From a virus, in IMG/VR virus record IMGVR_UViG_3300000062_000005: DNA of 64,000 nucleotides; one strand, written 5' to 3'. A model generated the notes under the pieces. That model was not told the DNA's origin and made no database searches. It saw only the letters and a list, made by a program, of their open reading frames with translations. Positions within the stretch are counted from its first letter, which is position 1. Each line of letters starts with the position of its first letter. The position numbers and the translations under genes are program-made. Below are positions 1,538-63,136 of the stretch, piece after piece.

Positions 1538-1555
1538 GTTACCCCTCCTTTATTT

Positions 1556-1846
1556 TCAATTTTTTCCGTTCATTGAATCAATACGATGATGAGCCTGTTT
1601 CGCAGAGGCTTCTACCTTTGTCATTCGCTCCGCAATGTCTAGGTATTTCTCGTCCTGCGCCTCCTGCTTGCGCTTGATATCGTCAATGCCAGATTTTACA
1701 TAACCAAGCTCTGTTAATACAACAGCTTCTTCTTTTGCCTTCTCTCGCAATTCTTTATCGCGTGTGCGTTGGGCACCTACAAGTCCGACTACCACACCGA
1801 TGAGTGAACAGGCTATTCCAATCATCACAGTGAGTTCAACCGCCAT
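1556..1846 (-). CDS. Small membrane protein, holin/XhlA-like
   Basis: 96 aa with one N-terminal TM helix (VMIGIACSLIGVVVGLVGA) and a coiled-coil tail ending SAKQAHHRID; directly after the endolysin. Confidence 0.65.
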   Translation of the reverse strand: MAVELTVMIGIACSLIGVVVGLVGAQRTRDKELREKAKEEAVVLTELGYVKSGIDDIKRKQEAQDEKYLDIAERMTKVEASAKQAHHRIDSMNGKN

Positions 1847-5095: not shown

Positions 5096-5933
5096 TAGTT
5101 ATAGCACCTCCGTTATAAATAGCCTTCCAAGCAATTTGGTATGCTGCAGCAGTTGTCGTGAATCCTGACATTAAAGTATTTGCTACATTTGCAGAAGTAG
5201 ACGCTACTCCTGTAGCAGTATAATACGTTGCTGTAGCCGGTACCCTAATAATACATTGGAAATTTTTGGTTGTTACATTTGCAATTGATATAGCTACATC
5301 CAAAATACTACTAGACAAAGCATTAGGGTTATTAACTTGGGCCGTTACTTTTGGAATATCCATAAATTCCCTACTAAAGGGTATTGTTTGCCATCCTGCC
5401 CCAACATTAAAGTAAGTTCCCGAGTCAATCACAACATCATCCATCTCAGTAAAAATATGTGTTGTGCTACCTTCTCCAGCGCTTCCTTGCACTATAAAAC
5501 TGTCCAAAACCTGACTATATACCACAGTTATCCAAGTTCCGGGAGGAGTTCCCGCTAGAGGTGCTCCAGAGGGTAAGATAATAGGGATATCAGCAGTATT
5601 GTTGATATTTAGCCTAGTCTTACCATCAAGTCCTGGAATTGGTATATTGTGTAATTGTATTCTAGCAGCAGCTCCATTGAATAGGGAAAAACCCTCTTGG
5701 GCCAATTGAAAAAATGTTGAAGTTCCTGTGGTTATTCCGGAGGCGGCTAAACATTCATCCCAAGCTAGCTTATTTTGTCTCATCCCTTCAGTTATTATGG
5801 GATTTTTTAGGATGAGTTGGGCATTTGATACCACAGAAACTCCGGCACTATTTACAATGTCATATCTGGGGATGACTGCAGTATCAGTAGATAGCGCTTT
5901 ATCCAATACTTCATCGACGCGTCTTTGTGCCAT
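5079..5933 (-). CDS. Tail fibre/baseplate protein with C-terminal lectin-like domain
   Basis: 284 aa; GWQTIPFSREFMDIPKVTAQV resembles the H-type lectin/gp53-like C-termini of tail fibres. Confidence 0.55.
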   Translation of the reverse strand: MAQRRVDEVLDKALSTDTAVIPRYDIVNSAGVSVVSNAQLILKNPIITEGMRQNKLAWDECLAASGITTGTSTFFQLAQEGFSLFNGAAARIQLHNIPIPGLDGKTRLNINNTADIPIILPSGAPLAGTPPGTWITVVYSQVLDSFIVQGSAGEGSTTHIFTEMDDVVIDSGTYFNVGAGWQTIPFSREFMDIPKVTAQVNNPNALSSSILDVAISIANVTTKNFQCIIRVPATATYYTATGVASTSANVANTLMSGFTTTAAAYQIAWKAIYNGGAITNANRN

Positions 5934-6410
5934 TTAATACCTTCCTCTCGTAAAATGTTGTATTCGTAAAATATTTCCACTAAAACTCGTGCCACAGATA
6001 ATATCAGAGTCATATCTGTTTAGCCAGAGATTTATTTGCCACAGGTCAAAAGTGTAACTCTCTATGATATTTATTTTGGCAAAAGTGTTAAAGGGCAGTT
6101 CTGGAACAGGTCGCATTAAGTCAATCATAAAAGTTAATAATCTTTCCAAGTCCTCTTTTATGGTAACTATCTCACTTCTTGTATCTACAACATCTTTTTC
6201 CCAGACAAGCTTACAGTTTACATGAATAATATATCCAATCTCTGATAATGCTTGTGATAACCAATGAATATTGTTTGTCAACCTGTTCCAGTCTAGTGCA
6301 TTCTGTGCTCCCTTTAATTCAACAGAATTTCTGTGTGTTTTGGCATATTCAACATCAGCTTGGGTTCTGTCAAAGATAGGTTGAATCCAGCTAAGTGACG
6401 GCATTTCCAA
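5934..6410 (-). CDS. Minor tail/baseplate protein
   Basis: WIQPIFDRTQADV...KGAQNALDWNRL motif typical of Firmicutes siphophage tail genes; gene position fits. Confidence 0.55.
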   Translation of the reverse strand: MEMPSLSWIQPIFDRTQADVEYAKTHRNSVELKGAQNALDWNRLTNNIHWLSQALSEIGYIIHVNCKLVWEKDVVDTRSEIVTIKEDLERLLTFMIDLMRPVPELPFNTFAKINIIESYTFDLWQINLWLNRYDSDIICGTSFSGNILRIQHFTRGRY

Positions 6411-8073
6411 TCACCACCATTTCTGCACTATTTGCTCTTAAATCAATATCTAGCCCTGTGATTAGCCCCTCAAGAGATCTTCCTTTTGTTTCCATCGTAG
6501 CTACATAACCTACCTCTTTATCATCTAGAGCTATGTCTGTAGTTGACTTAATTCTATAATGTAATAACTCAAACTGCTTTTGGGCTAAGTAATCTGCAGT
6601 CTCTGGACTAACTAGGGTAAAATCGTCGAATTTCTTTAGGGCGTCTATCTCACCAGCAGTCACTTCTTCTCGTACGATATGTGATTGTTGATTTTCAATA
6701 TACACACTTCCTTCAAGTAGTACTTCTGTTTCCACAGGAACAACTAAGATTGCATAATTCACATGACTTTCAATGATAGTGGCTTCAGTTACTTCTAGGG
6801 AGTGCATAGGGTTTCTAAAAGATATCCGGTGTCTTCCAACGGTCAGGACATCTTTAAACAGCTGTCTCACTTCTGTTCCGGGGGTATAACTATACGAGAT
6901 AACTTCAACTCCAGAGAAATATTCTGTGGGTTCATCTTGTCCCTTCCTATATTGCCTTTCTAGGGGTATATTAAGGGTAGACACGGTGTCTCTGTCGTAT
7001 ATCCATATATACTCTCTTCTTGAGGTATCTGCTATGGCGTGTATAGCGAAGAGAATATGTTGGAGAGCTTCTCCACAGGTGCCTGAAGGAATCCACCCAG
7101 TCACTGTAGAATCAGATAGAGAGGGATCTATTTGATAACCTATAAGGCCCGTGGGAAATACTATGCCAAATAGCTCGTTAAGTAAGTCTATAGCTGGTTT
7201 TCTTATGTATAATCCCCCAGTAAAAGCATATAAATCAAATATGCTAATGGCATCTTCAGTATCAACGCTAAATTCTATTCCAGAACGTTTGGAATCTTTC
7301 CACTTAGTCAAGAAAAAAGCCCCATATAGGACACTATCTTTATAGACTTGCATTAATTGACGTTTCATCATCATATCATCAAAATTCTCACTCATGATGG
7401 GGCTAAAAATACTGTTCCTTGTTCTTATTTTTGCGTTCATCGTATTTATACTTAAAGTCTTGACAGTAGGGTCAATCTCTTCATTAATGTAGCATGAGCT
7501 AATTTCTGCATCGTAGAAAGTTCTAATGATACCAAAGTCTATGGCGTATAGCTTTATGAACCTATTCCTTATGTTAGTAGACAAGAACTCAGTTTTGATT
7601 CTTCTATAATCCAAAACACTCTGGGAAACAATAGCCAAGTTGGAAGTTTGTGGATATTCCCCGGTATGGATGATAGTATTTGAACTGTCATACCAAGTCA
7701 CTCTTATCCTATTTGCATAGTCATCTGTGTGCGGGTAAAAGTAATATGTTACACCTAGTGACTTATGATTGGCTCCAAAATAGATGTCTAGTGTTGGGGG
7801 ACTATCCCCAAAGCTTCCAAAATCATCACTTACTCCCTCACTCCAGAATCCAAAGGTTGTTAGGGGTGAAACCTCATCAGGAAAATGTTGTTTTGAACCA
7901 TCCAAAATGGAAAAGTTATGCTCATTTGTTGCATAGTTTGGAGGAACAGGAACTCCATCAAACCTCAGATTGTCTATGACACTCCAAGGTTTGATGGGAG
8001 TTACTATGATGTCCACAATATCTTGTTTTGCTACGGGGTCTACTTGTCCAAATCTAATTGATAATTCAGACAT
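6391..8073 (-). CDS. Baseplate hub/Tal-like tail protein
   Basis: 560 aa, second gene after the tape measure. Confidence 0.6.
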   Translation of the reverse strand: MSELSIRFGQVDPVAKQDIVDIIVTPIKPWSVIDNLRFDGVPVPPNYATNEHNFSILDGSKQHFPDEVSPLTTFGFWSEGVSDDFGSFGDSPPTLDIYFGANHKSLGVTYYFYPHTDDYANRIRVTWYDSSNTIIHTGEYPQTSNLAIVSQSVLDYRRIKTEFLSTNIRNRFIKLYAIDFGIIRTFYDAEISSCYINEEIDPTVKTLSINTMNAKIRTRNSIFSPIMSENFDDMMMKRQLMQVYKDSVLYGAFFLTKWKDSKRSGIEFSVDTEDAISIFDLYAFTGGLYIRKPAIDLLNELFGIVFPTGLIGYQIDPSLSDSTVTGWIPSGTCGEALQHILFAIHAIADTSRREYIWIYDRDTVSTLNIPLERQYRKGQDEPTEYFSGVEVISYSYTPGTEVRQLFKDVLTVGRHRISFRNPMHSLEVTEATIIESHVNYAILVVPVETEVLLEGSVYIENQQSHIVREEVTAGEIDALKKFDDFTLVSPETADYLAQKQFELLHYRIKSTTDIALDDKEVGYVATMETKGRSLEGLITGLDIDLRANSAEMVVIGNAVT

Positions 8074-8470
8074 ATTTATTACCTCTTTGAGCTATAAAGT
8101 TTGCCTTTATATTGCCTGTTCTGATGGAGTTATCAGAATTACTTCTTCTGAATTCTATTCCTTCTAATGTAAAATACATATTTTGGGTTAAGTCATTACC
8201 AAGTAAGTCGACAACAGTGACAGGAACAAATTCTATAGAACCTAAAGACAGACAAGTGTTATACAAATGCTTGAAGTCTTCATTTGTGGAAAGAGTAGAA
8301 TATATCTCTATTTGGAAATTCAAGATATATCCCTGAGGCTGACGTATCATATCCCACAGGTCTGCATTACTTCTTCCAGTTCCCGGACCGTCTAAGAGTT
8401 CAATCTTAGGAACATAGGAGATTATCTCCAGTGACCTTAGCTCCCGGCCATTTACAGTTAAAGTCATCAT
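8066..8470 (-). CDS. Distal tail protein (Dit-like)
   Basis: 134 aa directly after the tape measure; LDGPGTGRS..DMIRQ motif. Confidence 0.55.
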   Translation of the reverse strand: MMTLTVNGRELRSLEIISYVPKIELLDGPGTGRSNADLWDMIRQPQGYILNFQIEIYSTLSTNEDFKHLYNTCLSLGSIEFVPVTVVDLLGNDLTQNMYFTLEGIEFRRSNSDNSIRTGNIKANFIAQRGNKYV

Positions 8471-11400
8471 ACTGTCACCGCCTTCGCAGATATCCTGTCA
8501 CCTGATAATCGTCTCTGTTTATCCAAGAGGGGAACTAACACCTTACCTAAAGTTCTTCCTTCAAACTCTATAGTTAGCTCAATAGGTGCTTGTCCTCCTA
8601 GGGCCCCAACACCTCCGAGTTCTGCCAGCACGTCTTTTATGGCAGCAGTTGCTTCCTCTCTCATCGCCGACCTTGGAGACACAATTTCTTCTTCCCTTGT
8701 ATTATCTCCCACCACTACCTGTCTTGGCTTGTTAGGTGGAATCAATCCACCCTGAGCCAGTCTTGGTATGGCTATGGGTACTGGAGATGGAATAGATAAG
8801 AATATTGGGGGCTCAAGCATCGCCAACATCATAGCTATCTGCTGACACATGTTGTAAACAGATCTTACCATACTGTTGGTAAATGTTTCAGTCTTTCCGA
8901 TAACAATATTATACAGGTTAGTAAATTGACCTATAATTCCAGGACTTGTAGAATCCACAGTGGACCGGATGATGCCCATCATTTGAAGAACTGCACCTTC
9001 TACTAGTGGCAGACCGTCATCAAAGGCTAATAATAGACCTTCTACTAGATTAGTTCCTTGTTCAATAGTAATGTCAGCTGGGGAATGTATGCCCATAGCT
9101 TCATCTCCAGCTGCCACCATGCCATCTAACATAGAGGCATAATTACTAGCTATTTGACCTTTGTTATCATCTAGTCCTTTACCAAGACCGTCCACCAAAG
9201 CATCACTGGTGTCAGAGGCCCCAGATGAAGCTTCTCCAGTCATTCCTTTCCAGAAATCGCTCCATGCAGTTTTTACTCCATCCCACCATTTGCTTAGTCT
9301 GGTAAAAACCTTTCCTGTCTGCAGATCTATCTCTCCATCAATGCCTTCCCACCCAGAAGTCGTCTTAGCTACCAGCTCATTATACTTTGTCTCTTCCTCG
9401 GAGATAATATCTTTTCTTTGCTGTATAGCTGCAGCTACCATTAATTGGTATTCACCGTCAGTAATCTGACCAGCTTCTTTGAGTCTCTGGGCTTCTTTAA
9501 TCTGACCGTTCATCTGTTCTGTGGCTTCTTTAATAATATCCTTTTTATGTTGGGCAGCAGCAGCTAGAGTATCTGCAGCATGTCTCTTATCTATAGTCTC
9601 TAAATCTGTGGCCCTCGTCTCAGCTAGGGAGGCTCTTTCAGCATCATTTTCCACAGTGGCATCAATGACAGAGCTTAAAAACTCCTCGTTTGCCAGCAAT
9701 AGAGCTCGATAATGTTCATCTTCCATAGTTCCACCTTCTTCAAGGTGAGTTCTAAGTTGATCATTTATCCTATTTTGAGCATCCAGAATTCCGAGCTCTC
9801 GTTCGTTGTATTGCTCTATGATTTGGTCCTTGTTATCTATGTAGATCTGAAGTTCTGCGCCAGCATTTTGCTGTAAGCTAACTAGTTCAGCTTCTCTAGC
9901 AATTTGAATTTCTTCAAACTTAGCTATTTTTTCATCGGAATATTGTTCGAAAGCAGCCACAGATGCAGCATATTCACTACTTTCAGTGCCATAATCCAAA
10001 GCAGCTTGACGAACAGCATTCTCTAAGGTAGTACTCTGACGATTAATCTGGGCTATTGCGTCATCGTAAAATTTATTCACTGTAGCAATTCGCTCTTCAT
10101 ACTGAACAGCTTCATCTCCAAAAATAGCCGCAAGATTTGCTATGGATTCTCGCTTCATTCTCTCCAAATCACTTATTGCAGAATCTGCCATGTCTCGGAA
10201 ATACCCAGAAATAGCCAGCGTATTATCCCTTACTATAGGTCCTCCTTCTAAGAACATCTCCGTAAGAGCTTCTCTTACCTGATCTGCTTTATCTATGAAT
10301 GGAGTTAGGGCTTTCTGGGTGGCTTCAGAGATACTGTCTCCGAATCTCTCAACGTCAGGGATAACTTCAGCTCCCAAAACCTTGGACATAGCAATGGCTG
10401 CTGCGCCTAGTCCTGCCAGTATTCCAATTGCCCACCCTACTGGACCAAAACCTATTAACATCGCTGTTCCTAAGGCCGTGAGAGCTCCTGCCAATATTCC
10501 TAGGGCCACAGTCAACTCTGGCGAAAGGTCATTTAATGCTACAAAGGTTGCCAAAGCTACTCCAAGCATTACAAAGCCTGCTCCAGAGGAAATCACTATT
10601 TGTAAAAACTTAAAGGCTGCAGCCACTCCATTGATTATAGTTGGAAGATTAACTATTGCATAGTATGCTAATAGTGCTGTTGCTATTCCCATCAACATGG
10701 CAGCTACAGGCTCTCCGAATAACCCTGACAGGAAGTCATAGATGGCCCCGAAGGCTGCACCAAAGATAAGGAACATAGCATTGATAATGCCAAGCCAATC
10801 TATGGCTAAGAGAAATTCTTTTATACTCTCTCCAACAAGCCCCCAATTTACTCCTCGAATAGCTTCCAGTAAAGTAGTCAGTAGTCCTAGTATAAAAGTT
10901 GACACAGTGGTTCCAGCTGTGGACCAACTAAAAGTGCTAAAGAAAGAATTAATCCCTGCAGCTATTGATTGTCCCAACCCAGCCCAGTCAAATGTTCTAG
11001 CAAATCCTAGAGCAAATAGGAAGGCTGTATTTAGCCCTTGAGCTATAGTATATCCTGCAGCTATCCACAGGTCTGGGTTAGCCAGTGCTCCACTTAAAAA
11101 TGCCCCCAGCTTAATTCCAAAACTGTATGACCAATCTTGTATCTTATCCCAGTTTATACCAAATAAGCCTTTAGCTATTTTATCCGATATTCCTTTACCT
11201 AAATTATAAAAATAGTCCTCATCGGGAACAATTTCCAATAATTTTCTTCTGAATTCTTCAAGCCAGGCCATGTCTATCTCAGGCTCTTTTACATTGTCAA
11301 ATAGATCGCTGAAAGCATCACCCGTTCCAGCTCCTCCAGATGCAGTATCTGCAGCAGCTTGGTTGATATCATCAAACTTAGCTAAGAATTTACCTGCATC

Positions 11401-12546
11401 CTTTGCAGCTCCTCCAGTTTTCTTTAATGCTTCTGCTTGCTCATTCAAAGCCTTAGCTGAAGCTGCAGACTGTAAATAAGACTTACCAAATATTAAAGAT
11501 ATGAAGGCAGCTAAATAAGCTGCAGCCTGAGACAGGGCATGCATTAAAGCGTTCAGGGCAGGGAGTATTGCCTCATAAATAGGTTGAAAAGCCACAGCTA
11601 ATCGGATTTTAATCTCATCTAAAGAGTGCATAAACTCTTCGTTTGTCCGGATTAAACCACCGATATAGTTTCGCAGATTTGTAAGACTTTTACGGATTAG
11701 ATTGAAGACTAAAACAGTTTGAACCATTCTAGTGATTCTTCTACCCATCTTTTCCAACAGCCCTGTGGTTTTCTTAGTATCTCTTCCAACTCCTGCTACT
11801 GCAGAAGCCATATTTCTTAAGGTACCATTAATTCTTTTTGCACTAAGATTCCATCTATCCGGATTCTCAGTATTAAATGCCTGAAGAAGAGCATTTTCAG
11901 TGGTACTAGCTTCGCTAGACATTCTCTCCAGTCTTCCTGAAGCCTCAGAGATACTTGCCTCAAGCCTTTGGGCCTCAATGCTTGTAGTGGGATCTAACCT
12001 TATTTGCTGTATATTGGTTTGGAGCAATCTACTTGAATCATCCACAGACCTGATCTTGAGTCCTAGTTCTTCCAATTTAGCATCTATATCTGCCAGTTCA
12101 GCAGAGGTAGTTGGAGAAACAGACCCAGAAGAAGCTATATCTGCGGCTCTATGCTGTTCCAGCATTTCCTGCTTAGCTATAAGTTCATCAAATTCTTTGT
12201 TAAGCTTTACCAGCTCTGATTCATTCTTAGTCAATTGTTTTTCCATATCCACAAGGGATTTGGGGGTTGTCTGTCCACTAGATAGCTTCTCGTATTGATT
12301 AGCCAAATCCAACACGTGGTTTCTTTGTTTCTGCACAGCCTCCAGCTGTCGATTAAGTTTTTGAGTGAATTTATCAACTTGTGCCTGCTGCTTTCCACCG
12401 AACGCAGATTCCGAAGCAGACGCAACATCCACAAGGGTTTTCTTCATGTCCACAAAGGCTTTATCCATGTTCTCTAAGCCCCTGTCAAAATTGTTAGCAT
12501 CAAATTTTGTGTCAAAGATAATTGAAGCATCTGCTCTGTCTGCCAC
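8467..12546 (-). CDS. Tape measure protein
   Basis: 1359 aa, coiled coil with hydrophobic Ala/Gly-rich helices and Trp-spaced repeats; C-terminal IPRLAQGGLI..VVGD motif. Confidence 0.93.
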   Translation of the reverse strand: MADRADASIIFDTKFDANNFDRGLENMDKAFVDMKKTLVDVASASESAFGGKQQAQVDKFTQKLNRQLEAVQKQRNHVLDLANQYEKLSSGQTTPKSLVDMEKQLTKNESELVKLNKEFDELIAKQEMLEQHRAADIASSGSVSPTTSAELADIDAKLEELGLKIRSVDDSSRLLQTNIQQIRLDPTTSIEAQRLEASISEASGRLERMSSEASTTENALLQAFNTENPDRWNLSAKRINGTLRNMASAVAGVGRDTKKTTGLLEKMGRRITRMVQTVLVFNLIRKSLTNLRNYIGGLIRTNEEFMHSLDEIKIRLAVAFQPIYEAILPALNALMHALSQAAAYLAAFISLIFGKSYLQSAASAKALNEQAEALKKTGGAAKDAGKFLAKFDDINQAAADTASGGAGTGDAFSDLFDNVKEPEIDMAWLEEFRRKLLEIVPDEDYFYNLGKGISDKIAKGLFGINWDKIQDWSYSFGIKLGAFLSGALANPDLWIAAGYTIAQGLNTAFLFALGFARTFDWAGLGQSIAAGINSFFSTFSWSTAGTTVSTFILGLLTTLLEAIRGVNWGLVGESIKEFLLAIDWLGIINAMFLIFGAAFGAIYDFLSGLFGEPVAAMLMGIATALLAYYAIVNLPTIINGVAAAFKFLQIVISSGAGFVMLGVALATFVALNDLSPELTVALGILAGALTALGTAMLIGFGPVGWAIGILAGLGAAAIAMSKVLGAEVIPDVERFGDSISEATQKALTPFIDKADQVREALTEMFLEGGPIVRDNTLAISGYFRDMADSAISDLERMKRESIANLAAIFGDEAVQYEERIATVNKFYDDAIAQINRQSTTLENAVRQAALDYGTESSEYAASVAAFEQYSDEKIAKFEEIQIAREAELVSLQQNAGAELQIYIDNKDQIIEQYNERELGILDAQNRINDQLRTHLEEGGTMEDEHYRALLLANEEFLSSVIDATVENDAERASLAETRATDLETIDKRHAADTLAAAAQHKKDIIKEATEQMNGQIKEAQRLKEAGQITDGEYQLMVAAAIQQRKDIISEEETKYNELVAKTTSGWEGIDGEIDLQTGKVFTRLSKWWDGVKTAWSDFWKGMTGEASSGASDTSDALVDGLGKGLDDNKGQIASNYASMLDGMVAAGDEAMGIHSPADITIEQGTNLVEGLLLAFDDGLPLVEGAVLQMMGIIRSTVDSTSPGIIGQFTNLYNIVIGKTETFTNSMVRSVYNMCQQIAMMLAMLEPPIFLSIPSPVPIAIPRLAQGGLIPPNKPRQVVVGDNTREEEIVSPRSAMREEATAAIKDVLAELGGVGALGGQAPIELTIEFEGRTLGKVLVPLLDKQRRLSGDRISAKAVTV

Positions 12547-12558
12547 AGTCTCACCTCT

Positions 12559-13125
12559 TTACTTCTTCCTTAGCTGTCTTACCATTTCATCGTAGTCAAA
12601 GCCTTCTTCTTTGAAGTCTATCAAATGTCTGTTTTCGGAGTAGAATTTCTGTTCATGCTTCTCCAGTTTTTCTCCTCTTGCCCGCTTACTTCTAATGCCC
12701 ATTATGTGTGATATCAAAGAATCTCCGTCGATAGCTTGACATAAACCATAAAAAGTCCACCAATGCATGTACTCCTCTTCTCTTACGTCTTTTGCTACTA
12801 CAGCATTTACCGCAGAAAAGAGAAGTTGTTCATCCTGAACATAATCCATAGTCTTGGGACTAACAGAACTCCTGCTGGAGGACTGTTGTCCAATATCCAG
12901 GAACCAAACGGCTTTCTCAAGGGCTTCTTTTTGATTCCGTGGAATATTAGGAACAGACTCTCCAGCAGGAGTAAATATAATCTCAAGCAAAGTCAATTGC
13001 TTATTCATGGGGCTAAGACTATCGTCATTATAGGCCTCGAAGATAAGTAATGCAGCTCTGAAGTCACTATTGATATCATATTCTACTCCTTCGACCTCAA
13101 GGGTCTTAGGAAGTAATCCTATCAT
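12559..13125 (-). CDS. Tail assembly chaperone (A118 Gp15-like)
   Basis: LPKTLEVEGVEYDINSDFRAAL, QDEQLLFSA and YMHWWTFYGL motifs; just before the tape measure. Confidence 0.8.
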   Translation of the reverse strand: MIGLLPKTLEVEGVEYDINSDFRAALLIFEAYNDDSLSPMNKQLTLLEIIFTPAGESVPNIPRNQKEALEKAVWFLDIGQQSSSRSSVSPKTMDYVQDEQLLFSAVNAVVAKDVREEEYMHWWTFYGLCQAIDGDSLISHIMGIRSKRARGEKLEKHEQKFYSENRHLIDFKEEGFDYDEMVRQLRKK

Positions 13126-13580
13126 ACCTTTCGGGGTTTAACAGGCCTCTTAGCCGCTGCAGTATACTTCTTTCTGGAAGCTTCAAAGTCTTTGATGGAT
13201 TTTTCAATGATAGGCATCAAAGCATCCATAAAGTTCATGAATAGCAAACTACCATTTCGGATGGGAGACAGAGGATTAGCGCCTCCGAAAGCAGCCTTAG
13301 ACACAGGAGACTGGAATACATCATCGATGGCCGCTTCCAATTCCAAGCCGAACTCTCTCAGAGAACCCTTCTCATATTCCTCAAGTCCAGTTTCCTTCGT
13401 AATCCCCATAGAGGAAATCTTAGGCCTAAATTCATTTTCCATCCAGTTCTGAAACTCAATGAATCTGTCCACAAAACCTACATCGTTGGGATTCCACCGA
13501 ATAGTTCTGTTAGGGTCTTCATTAATGGTCCTAACTTCAAACCCATCATCAAATTTCAAATTGCCCATAATTTCAGCCAT
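13122..13580 (-). CDS. Tail assembly chaperone
   Basis: 152 aa between the major tail gene and Gp15; FDDGFEVRTINEDPNRTIRWNPNDVGF. Confidence 0.65.
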   Translation of the reverse strand: MAEIMGNLKFDDGFEVRTINEDPNRTIRWNPNDVGFVDRFIEFQNWMENEFRPKISSMGITKETGLEEYEKGSLREFGLELEAAIDDVFQSPVSKAAFGGANPLSPIRNGSLLFMNFMDALMPIIEKSIKDFEASRKKYTAAAKRPVKPRKV

Positions 13581-17730: not shown

Positions 17731-17928
17731 TTACTCTTCTACAATCTCAAATAAGTCCGGAGGGTATAAGTAGCCCGGCTTCCAATTGGGATCATCAAAA
17801 ATGTTATCGTCATTTGGGTCTTCATCAATGATTCGATACTCACCATGCTCAGATATTTCTTCAACATTGTAGACTTTACCGTTGATACATCCAAAATGTG
17901 AACTGTCTCCAAGATACCTTACTTTCAT
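17731..17928 (-). CDS. Small acidic protein, putative immunity partner
   Basis: MKVRYLG..NGKVYNV..EYRIIDE..YLYPPDLFEIVEE; overlaps the stop codon of the upstream toxin-like gene. Confidence 0.55.
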   Translation of the reverse strand: MKVRYLGDSSHFGCINGKVYNVEEISEHGEYRIIDEDPNDDNIFDDPNWKPGYLYPPDLFEIVEE

Positions 17929-18362
17929 AACTTCTCTTTAAGCCTCCTTATGTTAGTACTGTTGTTATTCATATAAAAGTGAACTTCTCCAATTCTTTCA
18001 TTACCATTTCTATCAATGATAATAGCTTTTCCAGCATACTTACTCCAGCCACCTGTAAGTCCATCACCCGGATGATCTTTAGTTAACCATTTACCATCAA
18101 TTAAAGCCCTAGAAACATTTGGACCATGAGTAATAACTAAGTTAGTTATCTCAGTTCCTCCTTTAATAAACCTTCCAGTATCTACTTTCTGTCCTCCTCT
18201 CCAATCATAAAGCTTAAGAGGAGTATTCACTGGAATATTATCCACAGGCAAGTTCTTTGGAGGAACAGTTCCAGAACCTTTCATGGAGGCAAACTGTGGA
18301 GTTCCATCTTCTCCAAGTCTAACTCTAGCTCCCCTGATGGTTACCCACCGCTCTTCAGACAC
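17925..18362 (-). CDS. Stand-alone MuF-C-terminal-type toxin-like protein (putative RNase fold)
   Basis: IKGGTEITNL..GGWSKYAG..GEVHFY pattern like the C-terminal extensions of phage minor head proteins; N-terminal RWVTIRGARVRLGEDG motif. Confidence 0.45.
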   Translation of the reverse strand: MSEERWVTIRGARVRLGEDGTPQFASMKGSGTVPPKNLPVDNIPVNTPLKLYDWRGGQKVDTGRFIKGGTEITNLVITHGPNVSRALIDGKWLTKDHPGDGLTGGWSKYAGKAIIIDRNGNERIGEVHFYMNNNSTNIRRLKEKL

Positions 18363-18419: not shown

Positions 18420-19589
18420 TCAAACAGTCCCAGTATATACCCTGTTAAACTCTGTAGGAATATCCATGGCCTCACTGAAGTTCTTATACAAACTTCGTTG
18501 TAAAGTATATTTAGTCTTAGCCTCCCATAATTCCTCCGGAAGCATTCCACCTTCATACCCTGCAATCTTAGAACGACTAAGTCTCATAGCTCTTTCCATT
18601 TTCCTTTGCATCTTCCTAGCTTCCCAAGAGTTATATGCTTTATCTTGAAAAACTCTAACTTCCAATTCCTTAGCTTCCATAGCTCTTAATTGTTCGTCAG
18701 AATAAGTAGGTGGAGTATCAGGAAACACAGCATACTTAATATGATAGCAGTTGAAGTCTTCTGGAGTTCCCACAGAGCCGTCAGGGCCCGGGTACAACTC
18801 ATAAAGTCTTCGCTCTACCGGATATAGCCTTCCAGTGGTATCGTACCTTCTTCCTCCCCAGCGATGGTTAGGCCTATGTCCTCCATGCCAAGATAGTTCA
18901 AAAGTAGTTAAACTCATCTGCTGGGCATTAAACTCACTCTGAGCATTTGTGGCATCCCTCAATCCACTCATCACAGCTCTTCGGGCAGCTACGTCTATTC
19001 TATCAGAGTGGCCTGTAGAATAATCCACAGTTCTTAGGCCTGATTCTGTCATTTTCTTGACTGCCTGTCTTATAGCTTGATCTGCTGTCTCAGTTCCAGT
19101 TAAAATTTTAGTCATTGCTAAGTCAAGCTCTTCTTGATAAAATTTAGCCACAGGCTTGAATACTAGTCCTAGAGGGGTTTTTACTGCGAATCCCAAAGAT
19201 CTGGTCATATTTATCATCTGACCTTGAGTTTGCTCTGAGATGGTTCTTATGAGACGTTGTAAAGCGTAGTTCTCCGAGAAGGGTATATAGGCTATCCCGT
19301 GTTCTTGGAATACTCTCTTATCATAAATATATCCAGCTTGAGCAGCTTCAGCAAACAGAGCATCAATCTGCTGGTTAGTTATCCCAAGTATCTTACGAAG
19401 CTCTTCTCTGAAGCTAACATCAAATAGTCTAACTTCTGATGCTTGTGTAAGTCTATACTCAGCACTGGAAGTAATATATCCGTTCTTTCTTATTCTTCTA
19501 GCGATATCAGAAATAGTCCAATTCTGCAAACGTTGAAGCAGTTGAACTATTTCGGAAGGAGCTACTTCTATGTCGAATAAGTTAAACAT
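18420..19589 (-). CDS. Minor capsid/head morphogenesis protein (MuF-type, Phage_min_cap2)
   Basis: Follows the portal; SGLRTVDY..RIDVAARRAV, SWHGGHRPNH..WGGR and FNCYH motifs; no long toxin extension. Confidence 0.85.
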   Translation of the reverse strand: MFNLFDIEVAPSEIVQLLQRLQNWTISDIARRIRKNGYITSSAEYRLTQASEVRLFDVSFREELRKILGITNQQIDALFAEAAQAGYIYDKRVFQEHGIAYIPFSENYALQRLIRTISEQTQGQMINMTRSLGFAVKTPLGLVFKPVAKFYQEELDLAMTKILTGTETADQAIRQAVKKMTESGLRTVDYSTGHSDRIDVAARRAVMSGLRDATNAQSEFNAQQMSLTTFELSWHGGHRPNHRWGGRRYDTTGRLYPVERRLYELYPGPDGSVGTPEDFNCYHIKYAVFPDTPPTYSDEQLRAMEAKELEVRVFQDKAYNSWEARKMQRKMERAMRLSRSKIAGYEGGMLPEELWEAKTKYTLQRSLYKNFSEAMDIPTEFNRVYTGTV

Positions 19590-19727
19590 TTACTTCACAA
19601 ATCTACCTTTCTCGTCACGGTCTGTTAGTCTAATGTAGCTAAGTTCCACAATCCTCAATCTGTCCAATTCATTCAAAAGTGCTTGATATTTACTTCTAGA
19701 AATAATTATCCACCTGAATATCTTCAT
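19590..19727 (-). CDS. 45-aa ORF missed by the track (MKIFRWIIISRSKYQALLNELDRLRIVELSYIRLTDRDEKGRFVK)
   Basis: Translated by hand. The ATG overlaps the portal TGA, there is an AGGAGG RBS, and the TAA abuts the next ATG. Confidence 0.7.
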   Translation of the reverse strand: MKIFRWIIISRSKYQALLNELDRLRIVELSYIRLTDRDEKGRFVK

Positions 19728-21115
19728 GGCATACCCTCCTCAACCATCTGGGGAAGCGGAGGCATCATTTTTAATGCCTCTTCCTCCGTTTTGCCATACC
19801 TATAGGCCAAGTAGATTTCAGGTCTTATCAAACCTGCAGCTACTTCAGAAGCCATTCTGACAAGCTCTGTGTTTTTATCCTCTATGATACTATCATCAAA
19901 AGTGACAGTAACTTCAGCTTCGGGGTCCAATCCTGTGGCAAGGCTGTGTTTAATCCCTAATTCCACCATCAGCCTGACTAAGTCCACTAACACAGCCTCA
20001 AGGATTATTTCATGCTTTTTCAAAGTTCTGAAGAGAGTATTATTCTCGCTGATAACCTGGGTTGCTGTAGCAATGCTACTCCCCTCGTACTTATAATAGT
20101 TTTCACCAAGTCCACATTGGCTGGAGAAGATGTTGAGGCCTTGATGGAGAGCTTGCTGATGGTCTGTAGTTCTGAGGGTCATATTCAGTTCATGAATAAA
20201 AGGCTTGCCTTCTATATTCATGCCCTCTGGAAGTTGGTAGTATACCAGATCATTGGGATCAAATACCGGAGAACCGCTCATCATATTTATAGCTTCAGCT
20301 GCTACTAGTACTCTCTTTTTACCCAGTTCGAACTCATTCATGTAAGAGTCATATACTAAGTCACAGAATTTCATGCTATCTATAGCATTAGCAAATACCG
20401 CTATTCCAAGGGGATTATCTGGGTCTATGTTATTGGCAATATTCAGTCTATCTATAACAAAGGGTTTAGTAGTACTTTTTGTAAGAATCTCTTCCTCAAC
20501 CTTATCATACCCAGTAACATCCCTGAGAGGTACCTCGATATATTTATCTCCTTTTTCTTCAGTTTCTAGAAGAATATTCTGAATTTTATATGTATGATCT
20601 TCCTCCAAAGTAAATAGCTGAAGAAATATATAGTCCTGACCCTCAGAAGTGGTATTGCTATACACAGCTAGCTCTGTGATTACTCCATTTTCACAAGATA
20701 ATGGAAACAGACCATCTGCACTGATATAATTCATCTTTAATCCGTCAGAAGTGAAGTAAGGAATGTAGCACATAGTTCCTAGTGCAGCCTTTTTCTCTTG
20801 GGACTCATTAAGCTTGATATACATATTATTTCTATCAAGCATATCATCAATAAACTCTTGAGTAGCCTGACTGTTCACAGCTATCTTACATTTCTCATTG
20901 AAAAGCAGATTAGCCAACTGCTCACTCACAGATTTTCCTAACTGAAGACTGGCTCTCGTTCTGCTAGCAAAAGTTGTACCAGTATACACTTTGTAATCAT
21001 GAAACCCATCCACAGCGCCTGCGTACCATGATTGCCAAGTAGAGATTTTATCTGAGAGGCTATCAATTACCTCAAAACCCTTTTCTGTGAGATACTCCAC
21101 CAAAGCTTTGTCCAT
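19724..21115 (-). CDS. Portal protein (SPP1/A118-like)
   Basis: 463 aa after terL; LGIAVFANAID, TATQVISEN and VTFDDSIIED motifs. Confidence 0.92.
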   Translation of the reverse strand: MDKALVEYLTEKGFEVIDSLSDKISTWQSWYAGAVDGFHDYKVYTGTTFASRTRASLQLGKSVSEQLANLLFNEKCKIAVNSQATQEFIDDMLDRNNMYIKLNESQEKKAALGTMCYIPYFTSDGLKMNYISADGLFPLSCENGVITELAVYSNTTSEGQDYIFLQLFTLEEDHTYKIQNILLETEEKGDKYIEVPLRDVTGYDKVEEEILTKSTTKPFVIDRLNIANNIDPDNPLGIAVFANAIDSMKFCDLVYDSYMNEFELGKKRVLVAAEAINMMSGSPVFDPNDLVYYQLPEGMNIEGKPFIHELNMTLRTTDHQQALHQGLNIFSSQCGLGENYYKYEGSSIATATQVISENNTLFRTLKKHEIILEAVLVDLVRLMVELGIKHSLATGLDPEAEVTVTFDDSIIEDKNTELVRMASEVAAGLIRPEIYLAYRYGKTEEEALKMMPPLPQMVEEGMP

Positions 21116-21116: not shown

Positions 21117-22424
21117 TTACTTTAACCTCCCAGCTTTCTCTAGTTTTTGCATAGTTGTGCAGAGTGAATATTCAAAACCATCTAGACTGTCAATATTAGA
21201 GGTACCATTGTCAAGTCTAGAGGTTTTTAGCTTATCATCCCAGATAGCTGATTGAAATGCTTCTCTTAAATGTACACATTTAGCCGCTATTTTTAATCTA
21301 TCCATAGCAAATAGAGTGTTTGTCAGATCTATTCTGCTATTTATTGGGTGTTTTATACAGCTTTTGATGCTAGCTCTTAGTCCTCTTCTTGCTGAAGAAT
21401 TGCGAAGTCCATTTACCAACATCTTTTCAGCACTATCCGGAAATACTCTTGCAGGTCCATACTCATCGATAATCCCTTCCATGAAAATCATCAACCTGCG
21501 GTATAATTCTTCTGGGTCCATATCGTCCTTAGTATAAAATTCACCTAAAACTATAACCTCATCACAGTTTTGTGTAATGGCTACAGCCACAGCTGTGTTA
21601 GCAGATTTTCCATGTCCCCAGTCAATTCCAATAAAAACTCCCATAATGACTATATCATTGTCCTTAAGATACTGTAGGGGGTCATCGATGATATACCTGT
21701 CAGCATTTTCCACAAAGTTGGTATATATAGCCCCTTCTAGCATTCCCCAGTTACCTAATCCTTCTACCAGATATCTTCCCGGAGACTTCTCTTTCATCAG
21801 ATCAAATAAGGCTATATCATCTTCTCCCAGAAATTCATTCTGAAGGTATGTTGTGGTCAAAGCTTTGGTAAACTTGTTAGGGTCGTCAAAGAATCTAGCC
21901 TTCAGCCAGTGTTTCTCATTCCACGGATTGAAGGAGATGATAAATTGTTTGAATAATCCTTCAGGAAGATTGCCTCTGATAGACAAATCAAGCCTATCGA
22001 AATCGCTTTCCTTCATAATCTGATAGGCCTCTTCAACCCACACAAAACAGAGGTAACCTTTCTCCACAGTGGCAGAAGCGATGGACTGTGGGTCGTTCAT
22101 GCCCCTGAAGATTATAGACTGACCTGTGGATATAAAAGTCAGTTTCATCGGAGAAGTGTTAGCCTTCCACAGGTGGTCAACTCCCAGTCGATTTATTGCC
22201 CACTTTAACTGGGCAAAAGTTGAGTCTCTGTGATCAACATCGTACCTCCGGACTACAAGACCGTTGCTTTCAGGATATTTCATAAGGTTATATATAAGTT
22301 TTAAGGCAGCCGTACAGCTCTTTTTAGAGCCGCGGCCACCTTTAACAACTAAGTATCTTTTTTTGCTTCTCCAAAAACTGCCATATCCTCTGCCCACAAT
22401 CTCAGGTAAATTTATCTCAGGCAT
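21117..22424 (-). CDS. terL: Terminase large subunit (PBSX/SPP1 type)
   Basis: Walker A KGGRGSKKS, Walker B VWVEEA, SFNP, nuclease IGIDWG and DSLDGFEY. Confidence 0.96.
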   Translation of the reverse strand: MPEINLPEIVGRGYGSFWRSKKRYLVVKGGRGSKKSCTAALKLIYNLMKYPESNGLVVRRYDVDHRDSTFAQLKWAINRLGVDHLWKANTSPMKLTFISTGQSIIFRGMNDPQSIASATVEKGYLCFVWVEEAYQIMKESDFDRLDLSIRGNLPEGLFKQFIISFNPWNEKHWLKARFFDDPNKFTKALTTTYLQNEFLGEDDIALFDLMKEKSPGRYLVEGLGNWGMLEGAIYTNFVENADRYIIDDPLQYLKDNDIVIMGVFIGIDWGHGKSANTAVAVAITQNCDEVIVLGEFYTKDDMDPEELYRRLMIFMEGIIDEYGPARVFPDSAEKMLVNGLRNSSARRGLRASIKSCIKHPINSRIDLTNTLFAMDRLKIAAKCVHLREAFQSAIWDDKLKTSRLDNGTSNIDSLDGFEYSLCTTMQKLEKAGRLK

Positions 22425-22515
22425 TCAAGACACCTACTTCTTTTTGGGTTTAGGAGTAGCCACAGCTTTACCCATAGTGTTTATCTTTCCGGGATTGCTT
22501 TTTATTTTCTTAGTT

Positions 22516-23232
22516 TTAATAATAATTCCTCCCATCAGTTACTAAAGCTGTTCTGTTGTATACTATGGTATATGTTTGCTTAGTTCCTCCACCGGCCTTA
22601 CGAACTCTAGAGTTTCCAGAGGCTCCAGTCACTCTTAAGGCATCATATCCTCTAGAAGCCAAACTCGTGGTATATTGAGCCTGTTCAAAGGTATTCATCG
22701 CATTATATCTTCTACTAGATATTTCTGCTATTCTAGCACTAGATCTCAAAGCTATTCTATCGACTGTTCTACTGGAATTTCCTTGACTATTTCCTATCGA
22801 ATAAGCCCTTGCCTCGGTTATACTATTGGCTAAATAAATACCTCTTCCATATGAAGTTCCAGATCCCTCAATAAACATACTACCAGACATAAAATCATTA
22901 ACATAATGCTTCAAATCAGCTTCTGATGTTGCAGACATTCCTCTCCACAATTCTTCTACCTGTCCACTACTTACCAAGTTATCAAGTTCACCTGCAGAAA
23001 CAACTGTAGGAAGTCCATTAAATCCCTGATTAGCAAAAATGTCTGCCATATAATTCTCAAGTTCATGGCTTGCATCATAGTTTCTAGGGTTCCAATAAAA
23101 ACCCTTTTCTTCTGCGAGCTCAAAAAATTCAGATATAATAGGATTTTGGGCTATGAACTTTTCCAAATCTACAGTCAAGTCCTTACCTTTTACAACTGTT
23201 GACCTAGATGAACCCCCACCTCGTCCTCCCAT
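22516..23232 (-). CDS. MGGRG-tagged protein with a PARP/diphtheria-toxin-like (ART-PolyVal-like) ADP-ribosyltransferase fold
   Basis: LWRG...YGRGIYLANSITEARAY...GYDAL..YTIVYN pattern; N-terminus MGGRGGGSS. Confidence 0.55.
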   Translation of the reverse strand: MGGRGGGSSRSTVVKGKDLTVDLEKFIAQNPIISEFFELAEEKGFYWNPRNYDASHELENYMADIFANQGFNGLPTVVSAGELDNLVSSGQVEELWRGMSATSEADLKHYVNDFMSGSMFIEGSGTSYGRGIYLANSITEARAYSIGNSQGNSSRTVDRIALRSSARIAEISSRRYNAMNTFEQAQYTTSLASRGYDALRVTGASGNSRVRKAGGGTKQTYTIVYNRTALVTDGRNYY

Positions 23233-23243
23233 ACTATCACCCC

Positions 23244-23855
23244 TTACTTAGGAGTAGCTCTAAGAATAACTTCATAGTTATACCATGGAGAGCCTTTATC
23301 CTTAGTATATTTAACATCTACTATCTCATACCTAGTATTTCTAGCCATAAGGACTTCTCGTTCCTTACTGCCAGACCTATGCCTAGAAACATTCAAAGCC
23401 TGTGTTCCTTTAGGAGCTAAAATAGTGAACGTAGTATCTCCAGTGAAATATTTAATAGCCGATTTAGACATAGATGTACTCAAATAACCTTTATCAGTCC
23501 AGGTCTTCATACCCATCAACTCAGCTTTAACATCTGCAGGGTCTTTAGGGGTCCAAAAGCTTTCATTTGACCTGACAGATATTCCCATATCAGATAAATT
23601 TCCACCTCGGAATAAGGTAGTATCACTAAGCACTGTAGATTTAGCCATAATATCGTCAAGCACAGGAACTAACTCTCCATGAGCTCCTATTTCTCCATTG
23701 CGGAGGTCCTTATTAAGAGAAGTTGTTCCAACAGTATAGGTTTCTATCGCATCTAATTCTTTAGCACTTAGCCTTGGGTTACTATCCCTAAAGCTACCCA
23801 AATAATCACTTGGATTATTGGAAAGCTTAGATGAACCTCCTCCCCTACCGCCCAT
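23244..23855 (-). CDS. MGGRG-tagged VIP2/C3-like (R-S-E) ADP-ribosyltransferase
   Basis: TLFRG, GYLSTS and KEREVL (ExE) catalytic motifs; N-terminus MGGRGGGSS. Confidence 0.88.
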   Translation of the reverse strand: MGGRGGGSSKLSNNPSDYLGSFRDSNPRLSAKELDAIETYTVGTTSLNKDLRNGEIGAHGELVPVLDDIMAKSTVLSDTTLFRGGNLSDMGISVRSNESFWTPKDPADVKAELMGMKTWTDKGYLSTSMSKSAIKYFTGDTTFTILAPKGTQALNVSRHRSGSKEREVLMARNTRYEIVDVKYTKDKGSPWYNYEVILRATPK

Positions 23856-23858
23856 AAA

Positions 23859-24509
23859 CTACTCCTTCACTCTTTTTAATGCCGTATTACCGACAATCTT
23901 AGTATTTCCTACATACTGTATAGGACCTTCAAGCGTCTTATGGAACTTAGCTCCTGAGTAGAACAGAATTAGTGTTGGATTAAGAACCTCAAGCATTCGG
24001 TTATACCCTATCAAGAAAGCTTCTCGTGCAGCCTTGTTATTTATCACCCCGAGAGCAGATACAGAGACCACAGAGTTCTGTGGAATACCTTCGAAACAGA
24101 AGGAGTAAGAGTCAGGTCCTGCCCAGCCTATTGTGGGAATAACAGTCAGGCCTTGTGACTGCCAGTAAGCTCCGCACCATTGCTTACGATAATGATTCCA
24201 CATTTGCAGGGGCAATGGAGTATCAGAGTATAAGGAAAAGTCAGGAGAGAATACTCCCGGGTATTTTCTGAGGCCTTCCAAATATTTCTCAGGGGCATTC
24301 CACACTCTGTCAAATTTATGATCTTCCTGATAAAAGTGCAAAAAAGAGGATAAATCCTCATTTCTTCTGAACCTAGTGAATGGTTTGATAGAAAATTCCT
24401 CCGGAACCTCATATACAGGCTTCATAATGGGGAAACCCAAATCAGTAAACTGCATACTGACAGGAGATTTAAACCAATTATGAAAATCCTGCTTGTTATA
24501 TTTGGTCAT
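23859..24509 (-). CDS. DUF4417-like protein
   Basis: LHFYQEDHKFDRVW, PDFSLYSD.P...WNHYR..W.GAYWQ..G..VIPTIGW...FCFEGIP; recognised by eye. Confidence 0.85.
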   Translation of the reverse strand: MTKYNKQDFHNWFKSPVSMQFTDLGFPIMKPVYEVPEEFSIKPFTRFRRNEDLSSFLHFYQEDHKFDRVWNAPEKYLEGLRKYPGVFSPDFSLYSDTPLPLQMWNHYRKQWCGAYWQSQGLTVIPTIGWAGPDSYSFCFEGIPQNSVVSVSALGVINNKAAREAFLIGYNRMLEVLNPTLILFYSGAKFHKTLEGPIQYVGNTKIVGNTALKRVKE

Positions 24510-24512: not shown

Positions 24513-25082
24513 TTAATCCTCCAGCTCACTCTCATTCCGGAAAACCACAGGCTCTTTGATCTCCACAAGAAGCTTGTGGTCCAGCAAGCCATAACGTCTA
24601 GCCAGCAGTTCCGCAGCTTTAGTGCGATCTTTAGGTCCTACTTGCTTCTTCAGACGCTCTATTACCTGCTCTCCTGCTCCTGATAGCCGGTTCATCAGAA
24701 CTTCCTCCTGAAGTTGACCTCTCATGCAAGCTGTCAGGTAAATCAGAACTTCTTCTGCTGTGGCAATTAAATCTTCCACAGTCTCGATCTGGGCCTCCGG
24801 TAACAGCTCAGGACGCTTAATTCTAATCTTCTGTTTTTTAGCCATCTCTTCTATAGTCCTCCTTAATAAAGCTTGTGCGGCGGGGCTTTTCCAGTGTTCT
24901 CGGGTCACAGACTTATGTGCTAATACCCCTCTGGGGTAGAATCTAGCAAGCAAAAGAGCATTATTTGTATCACCACAAATAAGGTGGTAATAAATTAGAG
25001 CTGTAACATTTGAGTAGGGTGGAAGTGGCCCAGATTCTGGGAGCGGGCCATATCTAGGTATTCGTCCTTCTTTAAGAGACAT
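24513..25082 (-). CDS. terS: Terminase small subunit
   Basis: IATAEEVLIYLTACMRG...KDRTKAAELLARRYGL..PVVF C-terminal signature; first gene of the late operon. Confidence 0.8.
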   Translation of the reverse strand: MSLKEGRIPRYGPLPESGPLPPYSNVTALIYYHLICGDTNNALLLARFYPRGVLAHKSVTREHWKSPAAQALLRRTIEEMAKKQKIRIKRPELLPEAQIETVEDLIATAEEVLIYLTACMRGQLQEEVLMNRLSGAGEQVIERLKKQVGPKDRTKAAELLARRYGLLDHKLLVEIKEPVVFRNESELED

Positions 25083-28541: not shown

Positions 28542-28925
28542 TTACTCATCTTCATCCTCATCCTCATCTTCATCCTCATCTTCATCCTCGTCTTCATCCT
28601 CAGGCTCGGGAGCAGGTGCAGCCTTCTTCTTGCTGGACTTAGCAGCCTTCTCAGCTTTTTCAGCCTTCTTAGCAGCCTTCTCCTCAGCTGTATCTTCCAC
28701 AGCGTCTTCGACGAGCTTACGAACCACAGCCAGCTCCTTGCTGCCCTCAGGCCACTGATACTTAGCGCGGGGACCGAATGTACCTTCTGGAGTGTCAGCC
28801 TTGGGAGCTGTCATACCATTTGCTCGGAGCAAAATCCGAATCTCTCGAGCCTCTACGTTAAATTCCTCTGCGAGCATGGCCACTGTGACCATGGGAGTTG
28901 TTGCTGCCTTATCTTTCTTTGCCAT
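28542..28925 (-). CDS. Histone-like/nucleoid-associated protein (HTH-like module, AKK-rich linker, poly-ED tail)
   Basis: VTVAMLAEEFNVEAREIRILLR..KYQW; AAKKAEKAEKAAKSSKKK; (ED)9 tail. Confidence 0.7.
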   Translation of the reverse strand: MAKKDKAATTPMVTVAMLAEEFNVEAREIRILLRANGMTAPKADTPEGTFGPRAKYQWPEGSKELAVVRKLVEDAVEDTAEEKAAKKAEKAEKAAKSSKKKAAPAPEPEDEDEDEDEDEDEDEDEDE

Positions 28926-52115: not shown

Positions 52116-52133
52116 GTTACCCCTCCTTTATTT

Positions 52134-63124: not shown

Positions 63125-63136
63125 AGTCTCACCTCT

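Follow-up and report, generated by a model that had tools for sequence, protein, structure and literature searches.

Polymorphic toxins combine a conserved N-terminal carrier with swappable C-terminal toxin domains (Zhang et al. 2012, PMC3482391), and temperate phages have MuF polymorphic toxins of their own (Jamet et al. 2017, PMC5576092). MuF-fused effectors have also been described among the polyvalent proteins (Iyer et al. 2017, PMC5512222), and the T4 internal proteins and Alt are loaded via a capsid-targeting sequence (PMC5512222). Two enzymes are relevant as well: DpdA, which requires the ParB-fold ATPase DpdB (PMC10164549), and the cysteine protease Prp, which cuts a leader with the published motif MLxx(D/N)LQ(F/L)F'A off bL27 and off the 80alpha capsid and scaffold proteins (PMC9405229, PMC5744158). 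Here we analysed a stretch of viral DNA of 64,000 nt (record IMGVR_UViG_3300000062_000005; the whole stretch is called the window hereafter), in which the flagged region 22516-24509, on the minus strand, encodes a DUF4417 protein followed by two effectors, A and B, which share the N-terminal residues MGGRGGGSS (the tag). These genes represent a widespread two-part module, consisting of DUF4417 and one to four variable effectors with a Gly-Gly-Arg-Gly-x-Ser-Ser-Gly tag; the cargo of this phage comprises two ADP-ribosyltransferase (ART)-fold enzymes. All functional statements made below are computational.

In order to determine how often the two parts occur together, DUF4417 loci were collected with a DUF4417 alignment as query, a locus search with the single protein having returned none. 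In viral contigs, a tagged gene was found on the same strand and at most 2.5 kb from DUF4417 in 73 of 80 loci, 63 with an MGGR[GST] start and 10 with the motif behind a leader, and only 3 of 11,460 candidate starts elsewhere in those loci match the tag. Bacterial genomes, all from different species, carry a tagged gene in 65 of 80 DUF4417 loci, and the remaining ones mostly have looser Gly-rich variants. Viral and bacterial loci combined, a tagged neighbour is present at 139 of 160 DUF4417 loci, with one to four per locus; these counts are inflated by related phages of a few large gut samples and are not phylogenetically independent. The association holds in 19 of 26 DUF4417 clusters (60% identity) and spans Clostridia, Bacilli, Bifidobacterium, Atopobiaceae, mycobacteriophages and others. 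In the reverse test, a DNA pattern for MGGRG[AG]SSG starts that was blind to DUF4417 gave 81 matches, and DUF4417 lies just upstream on the same strand in 74 of them, with the tagged start at -8 to +1445 nt from the DUF4417 stop; in six of the remaining seven matches the locus extends less than 1 kb upstream. The DUF4417 stop and the start of the tagged gene often overlap. An exact-tag DNA scan of viral contigs with TCN serine codons returned four unrelated matches only. The tag and DUF4417 are found together almost always, in the test that an earlier interpretation of this DNA (the sequence-only reading) had proposed, and both the existence of the module and a function for its tag are in our view very probable.

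Several observations indicate what kind of signal the tag is. Among 80 distinct tagged genes M-G-G-R is invariant (80/80) and the glycine at position 5 nearly so (79/80), with [GAS]-S-S-G as the consensus beyond it. Since all synonymous Gly, Arg and Ser codons are used across these genes (GGC, GGT and GGA for Gly; AGA and CGN for Arg; AGY and TCN for Ser), the tag is selected as a peptide, which is what the sequence-only reading had deduced from A and B. Six-frame translation of the window yields MGGRGGGSS twice only, at the starts of A and B, where five of the nine codons differ, exactly as had been reported, and blastp detects no similarity between the two bodies behind the tag at E<=10. The same data bear on the alternative that the shared start is a DNA or RNA feature (a duplication, a site of cassette-exchange recombination or a purine-rich initiation element) and not a functional peptide. 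The G-rich codons do contain GGAGG-like strings and cassettes have clearly been exchanged between loci; against this stand the codon differences between A and B, the varied Gly and Arg codons across the 80 genes, the Shine-Dalgarno sequence that each gene has upstream, and leader variants in which the motif lies 6-14 codons downstream of the start. We give this alternative next to no weight, and the codon data have largely refuted it. A recent DNA duplication was ruled out by the codon differences between A and B. Two further candidates were rejected: a G-rich start serving as the ribosome-binding site of a later start, since there is no in-frame start close by and every gene possesses a Shine-Dalgarno sequence of its own, and a mere linker relic, against which the four invariant residues and the Prp leaders speak.

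At DUF4417 loci without an MGGRG start, GGRG is preceded by the leaders MNLQFF-, MRMNLQYH-, MVMNLQYF-, MIKLDLQFF-, MLKLDLQHF- or MLELNIQLF-, which fit the published motif for Prp leaders, and leader-tagged genes of this kind were found in 16 related loci; no Prp-like leader is present anywhere in the window. The initiator Met is normally removed before Gly. Met excision in most tagged proteins and a Prp-type cut, replacing it in some lineages, should both give the same mature Gly-Gly-Arg-Gly start. Met-Gly starts and Prp-type leaders converge on GGRG, and this therefore suggests selection for a free N-terminal Gly-Gly-Arg-Gly. Processing of the tagged proteins is inferred; a free glycine N-terminus, to which the sequence-only reading had also drawn attention, would be what matters, as the convergence is otherwise hard to explain. 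In the streptococcal phages A25 (gp23; locus L298, 2501-2911) and Str01 (STR01_54; locus L299, 1201-1611) the conserved MGGRGASSG start overlaps the end of DUF4417, and the tag is missing from the database proteins because the deposited start is an internal Met 27 nt downstream, a misannotation that may have helped to keep the pattern from notice. Separately, we recorded three variants of the start among annotated phage genes: ORF29 of Streptococcus phage MM1 (locus L007, 5548-6294) has about 65 residues and then ...INFTL-GGGRGANF; gp2 of mycobacteriophage Che12, annotated as 'peptidase' (locus L198, 1226-1900), begins VTGGGGSGSGGG directly after the DUF4417 gene gp1; and gp104 of Rumpelstiltskin has MGGRGGGG immediately after the annotated GTG.

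Behind the tag the bodies vary as had been anticipated. No similarity could be detected beyond residue 14 between the 38 families into which the 93 tagged proteins were grouped. Pfam matches among them include ADPrib_exo_Tox (three), the Gln_amidase papain-fold toxin, ART-PolyVal, DUF6883 and PRTRC_E; PHROG matches include an Alt-like ART, the Bxa ART, a zinc-finger protease and a DNA-ejection pilot protein. The commonest body, of about 130 aa and with a weak Ntox24 match (E 0.04), is found in Streptococcus phages A25, Str01, phiNJ2 and MissD, in Roseburia phage Jekyll and in Dorea phage DO134P1. These bodies are interchangeable toxin-like or host-modifying domains, of the kinds fused to MuF in other phages. 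One DUF4417 accompanies several unrelated bodies within single loci, and Lys-rich or acidic small open reading frames (ORFs), partner-like in character, follow many cargo genes.

Such cargo also invites the explanation that DUF4417 is a generic guardian, a chaperone or immunity-like holder that grips the N-terminus and keeps the toxin inactive or stable in the producer, with no role in delivery. It would account for toxin-like cargo, for a single DUF4417 serving several unrelated bodies per locus and for the many loci, this window included, that lack obvious specific immunity genes. However, a catalytic domain should stay active when it is held only by nine flexible tag residues, the partner-like small ORFs behind many cargo genes argue against it, the conservation of DUF4417 looks catalytic (His, Asp, Ser, Cys and Arg at strand ends, see below) and the fusions of DUF4417 to ParB are left unexplained. 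We regard a guardian of this type as improbable.

The module of this phage and the genes that surround it are arranged as follows.
24513-25082, minus strand: terS, small terminase subunit, 189 aa (PF03592 Terminase_2, E 5.7e-06; phrog_51, E 7e-11)
23859-24509, minus strand: DUF4417 protein, 216 aa, stand-alone (PF14386, E 5e-55)
23244-23855, minus strand: effector A, 203 aa, apparent C3/exoenzyme-type mono-ADP-ribosyltransferase (PF03496 ADPrib_exo_Tox, E 1.5e-18)
23829-23855, minus strand: tag of A, MGGRGGGSS (ATG GGC GGT AGG GGA GGA GGT TCA TCT)
22516-23232, minus strand: effector B, 238 aa, predicted divergent ART fold of the PARP/diphtheria-toxin clade (model and Foldseek)
23206-23232, minus strand: tag of B, MGGRGGGSS (ATG GGA GGA CGA GGT GGG GGT TCA TCT)
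22434-22475, minus strand: putative Lys-rich mini-ORF of 13 codons (MGKAVATPKPKKK) between B and terL
21117-22424, minus strand: terL, large terminase subunit, 435 aa (PF04466, E 2.7e-48)
19724-21115, minus strand: SPP1-type portal protein (PF05133, E 1e-21; phrog_533, E 1.5e-111)
18420-19589, minus strand: minor capsid protein 2, a MuF/SPP1 gp7-like head protein without a toxin domain (PF06152, E 2e-68)

The flagged genes form the head of the structural gene block, which on the minus strand runs terS, DUF4417, A, B, terL, SPP1-type portal, MuF-like minor capsid protein, scaffold and major capsid protein. The gaps from terS to DUF4417, A and B are 3, 3 and 11 nt, and A and B are each preceded by a separate Shine-Dalgarno sequence. 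The sequence-only reading had placed the module within the packaging genes. This stands for the window, where it lies between terS and terL; elsewhere the usual position is immediately upstream of terS, and the placement seen here is particular to this phage. In deposited genomes the DUF4417 family occurs in 508 phages (385 of Mycobacterium, 57 of Streptococcus and 41 of Gordonia), with its gene usually immediately upstream of terS.

The two bodies were assigned to ART folds of different clades, as had been claimed for them. Effector A scores 67.3 bits against PF03496 (cut-off 23.4) and has R81 (LFRG 81), the STS motif at 126-128 and the ExE motif at 165-167 (ERE); by these motifs it appears to be a C3/exoenzyme-type ART. 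In its closest phage relatives the ART domain is part of a fusion with a MuF-like head protein. For B, word-based protein searches returned self matches only, as they did for A, and tblastn against phages found nothing; an exhaustive HMMER search gave 328 relatives. Residues ~60-238 of B constitute a domain that is mostly C-terminal in long multidomain relatives, so B reads as a tag, a helical N-terminal part and an ART-fold domain, and in one relative (P0008) the B-type domain is fused to Phage_Mu_F. A model of B built on a 37-sequence alignment (pLDDT 86.5) has exotoxin A domain III, PARP1/2, cholix, RES and ParT as its top Foldseek matches in the PDB (E 1.4e-3 to 6e-3, probability 0.87-1.0, and 0.96-1.0 for exotoxin A, PARP1, cholix, RES and ParT). 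On this model B is predicted to be an ART-fold protein of the diphtheria-toxin/PARP clade. It scores 17.7 bits against PF00644, below the cut-off of 26.7, and belongs to no Pfam family. The motifs of B are WRG at 96-98, YGRGIY at 128-133 and NR at 226-227. Within its family R97 (in place of the expected His), Y133 and N226-R227 (in place of the expected N-E) are invariant. Neither a conserved catalytic Glu nor a canonical H-Y-E triad was found in the B family, and the chemistry of B is uncertain because the Glu is lacking. A MuF domain (PF04233) was detected in neither A nor B.

The surroundings of B-type genes were considered as well. In the window, only the 13-codon ORF lies 3' of B, and no longer small ORF of the sort used as the immunity-ORF criterion for MuF toxins. 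Elsewhere, tagged B-type genes are regularly followed by a very Lys-rich ORF of 42-56 aa (L008, 1900-2046; L010, 1006-1167; L011, 1889-2041; L012, 2790-2918). The mini-ORF of the window may be a remnant of these ORFs, which could encode immunity, DNA-binding or partner proteins. Among short free-standing relatives of B, several start MGGRG or MGAGRSR; they adjoin tagged genes with other bodies, and one lies directly behind a DUF4417 gene. Other sequences were seen in front of B-type domains. A 145-aa ORF of the window (17925-18362, minus strand), located between the MuF-like and scaffold genes and without a Pfam or PHROG family, begins ..WVTIRGARVRL..., and a W-V-T-I-x-G-x-x-V start precedes B-type toxin domains in the unrelated P0020, P0029, P0088 and P0127; possibly this start is a second type of N-terminal address. 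The motifs H-x-G-x-H-D-Q-x-x-H-G-R and G-G-x-G-S-G-N-x-G-H-x-G-R-P-G-x-V-G-G-S are also recurrent before B-type domains (relatives with these two motifs are, for example, P0004, P0018, P0036, P0056, P0065 and P0068; P0075, P0076, P0097, P0138 and P0151), and both may be alternative tags in other, mostly high-GC lineages.

We then turned to DUF4417 itself. PF14386 matches residues 24-188 of the window protein with 186.2 bits (cut-off 28.9). The AlphaFold2 model, built on a 31-sequence alignment (pLDDT 86.5, pTM 0.84), predicts a truncated TIM (alpha/beta) barrel of ~180 residues. In VIA-align comparisons the best matches were the archaeosine tRNA-guanine transglycosylase (TGT) 1iq8 (Z 11.5 over 167 aa at 2.7 A), QTRT2 (6fv5, 10.7), DpdA (7ui4, 10.2) and the bacterial TGT 3unt (9.3); the TGT and DpdA matches have aligned lengths of 157-175 residues, and unrelated or generic barrels reach at most 8.2. 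DUF4417 would thus be closest to TGT and DpdA, by fold only. Pfam TGT (PF01702) gave no match to DUF4417 at E<=0.1, a search of AlphaFold clusters returned DUF4417 clusters only, and DUF4417 is not among the named DpdA subfamilies. The conserved residues are H58, D62/63, D90, S92, Y94, D96, N105, Y107, R108, Q117, C138 and S151, which in the predicted model lie at or just after C-terminal strand ends; D90-x-x-x-Y94 resembles, by position alone, Asp95…Phe99 of DpdA, in which Asp95 serves as general acid/base. There is no conserved Asp near the last strand, and no Zn cluster either, because C138 is the only conserved Cys.

Fusions provide a further view of its partners. ParB_N-DUF4417 fusions are common in relatives, the window copy being stand-alone, and a 2025 preprint lists DUF4417 as a phage-enriched fusion partner of the ParB-CTPase fold. 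The conserved residues, the ParB_N fusions and the parallel with DpdA-DpdB fit an enzyme acting on or near DNA. At two bacterial loci, DUF4417 is fused in a single ORF to Ntox50 and to Ntox37 (L282, 4893-5972; L287, 4857-5831), Rosetta-stone evidence that connects DUF4417 with toxin cargo. Both fusions have Q and T in place of the otherwise ~95% conserved D90 and D96, and loci with such a substitution tend to have no free tagged gene; the real cases number four, of which two are related. This gives only a weak hint that D90 and D96 may serve the free N-terminus of the cargo. In L282, MGGSGSN stands at the fusion junction, where internal initiation is possible.

The TGT-like fold and the ParB fusions, both pointing to DNA, are also what would be expected if DUF4417 were an unrelated DNA-modifying enzyme occupying the first slot of the late operon and the tag a procapsid address, read by head proteins such as the portal, MuF or scaffold. 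The location of the module in or beside the packaging genes, and the existence of the same toxin domains as MuF fusions, agree with such an address. However, tag and DUF4417 are almost obligate neighbours whichever of them is searched for, stop and start frequently overlap, the adjacency is seen in bacterial genomes too, and direct DUF4417-Ntox fusions exist; moreover, the Pfam families identified in 37 other ORFs of the window include no Que genes for 7-deazaguanine synthesis (QueC, QueD, QueE). We judge a procapsid address of this kind unlikely.

We favour a model in which DUF4417 handles the tag directly. DUF4417 would take the glycine N-terminus of the effector into an acidic pocket, where it would bind or chemically modify it, and would act as a common handler that couples any tagged effector to phage DNA or the virion. 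In this way the tagged effectors would arrive in the next host when the DNA enters or earlier, and the module would be a split alternative to MuF-toxin fusions. Coupling of the cargo to virion or DNA is inferred from three things: the module lies among the packaging genes, homologues of the cargo are fused to MuF, and ParB links DUF4417 to DNA. The case for DUF4417 as the reader or handler of the tag is in our view evenly balanced, and delivery of the cargo with the virion is possible, though doubtful. A covalent version can also be formulated, in which DUF4417 is transglycosylase-like and the alpha-amino group of the N-terminal glycine replaces a base, joining the effector to nucleic acid, most likely phage DNA; the ParB fusions would act as a loader and the protein-DNA conjugates would enter the next cell together with the genome. 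N-terminal residues that attack C1' of DNA are known from Fpg/Nei (Pro1), T4 endonuclease V (Thr2) and HMCES/YedK (Cys2). For DUF4417 we consider this chemistry distinctly unlikely.

A number of points weigh against the favoured model and the fold assignment on which it draws. Foldseek of DUF4417 against the PDB gave nothing below 1e-3, with TGT and DpdA unranked, the DUF4417 profile against PDB sequences was empty at E<=10, and hhalign of this profile against nine phage DpdA sequences returned a probability of 0.2%. The likeness to TGT and DpdA comes from one structural aligner applied to predicted models, and neither the TGT nucleophile Asp (Asp256 in DpdA) nor the Zn site could be located in DUF4417. 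Contact between DUF4417 and the tag is hypothetical: the complex prediction for DUF4417 and residues 2-31 of A scored 0.12 against a mark of 0.32, which gives no answer and counts neither way, and the recognition or conjugation of the tag proposed by the sequence-only reading stays a hypothesis. Its further proposal that the cargo is packaged and injected is likewise hypothetical; the only virion proteome found for a phage with the module, that of Str01 (12 proteins, low sensitivity), lists neither the tagged protein nor DUF4417. Finally, if a folded effector were tethered to the DNA, it could not go through the portal while the DNA is packaged, which makes the route of delivery doubtful.

The rest of the window defines the genomic context. 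Bases 1-13422 are identical to 50579-64000 (0 mismatches, period 50,578), so that the contig represents either a concatemer or a circular assembly; the underlying phage genome, of ~50.6 kb, is probably complete. Megablast of the flagged region against deposited phage genomes revealed no close relative. The replication arm (ORFs within 25380-52115) encodes ThyX, a ThyA-like protein, dCMP deaminase, dUTPase_2, a UDG-superfamily protein, DNA polymerase A, a SNF2 helicase and a ligase; the presence of two thymidylate-synthase-type enzymes suggests possible pyrimidine modification. At 28542-28925 (minus strand) lies the gene of a 127-aa protein whose C terminus is a perfect (Glu-Asp) run of ~18 residues, which could make it an acidic-tailed or DNA-mimic-like protein or be mere low-complexity sequence.

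As regards the literature, no published function was found for DUF4417, in line with what the sequence-only reading had stated; apart from the preprint mentioned above, two papers turned up that name it in annotation tables only. Searches for DUF4417, MGGRG and GGRG with phage found no description of the DUF4417-MGGRG pairing. The finding belongs to the polymorphic or phage-delivered effectors, and it would be categorically new if conjugation were shown. If DUF4417 does read the GGRG end, phages and mobile elements would have an undescribed way of handling a changeable arsenal of toxins and host-modifying proteins. A function would then be available for a family present in those 508 phages, among them mycobacteriophages of clusters A and L and A25, a classical phage of streptococci, Prp would gain additional substrates, and the nine-residue tag could possibly be used for loading chosen proteins.

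Comparison with the known systems places the module as follows. It shares with DpdA/DpdB and the tRNA-guanine transglycosylases (PMC10164549) the best structural matches of the DUF4417 model, and the partnership of DpdA with a ParB-fold NTPase (PMC10164549) is mirrored by the ParB_N-DUF4417 fusions; unlike TGT and DpdA, however, the predicted DUF4417 barrel is truncated, has no Zn subdomain and no identifiable nucleophile Asp, and shows no sequence-level similarity to them. Tagged relatives with a (D/N)(L/I)Q(F/L/Y)(F/H) leader directly before GGRG resemble Prp-processed bL27 and the 80alpha capsid and scaffold proteins. Here the residues after the cut would be Gly-Gly-Arg-Gly instead of Ala-(Ser/His)-Lys-Lys, and, in contrast to Prp substrates, the window's own A and B rely on Met excision. 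As in the T4 internal proteins and Alt, which are delivered on infection, a short N-terminal peptide is common to unrelated cargo that includes an ART. The T4 capsid-targeting sequence is removed by the prohead protease. The T4 analogy drawn in the sequence-only reading fits poorly: the tag must stay on the mature N-terminus, its partner is DUF4417, and no prohead protease was found among the head genes, which comprise scaffold, major capsid protein, portal and minor capsid protein only. Polymorphic toxins have the same design of a conserved front end and variable cassettes, and the rare DUF4417-Ntox50 and DUF4417-Ntox37 fusions share their exact architecture; in the module, by contrast, carrier and toxin are usually separate proteins linked only by a tag that needs a free N-terminus, and an enzyme-like barrel takes the place of a secretion domain as carrier. 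The closest likeness is to the MuF toxins, which also bring variable toxin or host-modifying domains (ARTs, nucleases and peptidases) into the head and packaging module, theirs being proposed to be co-delivered with the DNA, and which include domains homologous to A and B as MuF fusions. Unlike them, the effectors described here are free-standing, have a nine-residue N-terminal tag instead of MuF and are paired with DUF4417. A glycine tag is mentioned in neither PMC5576092 nor PMC5512222, and a literature search for DUF4417 returned neither paper. Altogether, the module works most like the MuF polymorphic toxins and the solo polyvalent-type effectors, minus the MuF domain that defines the former.

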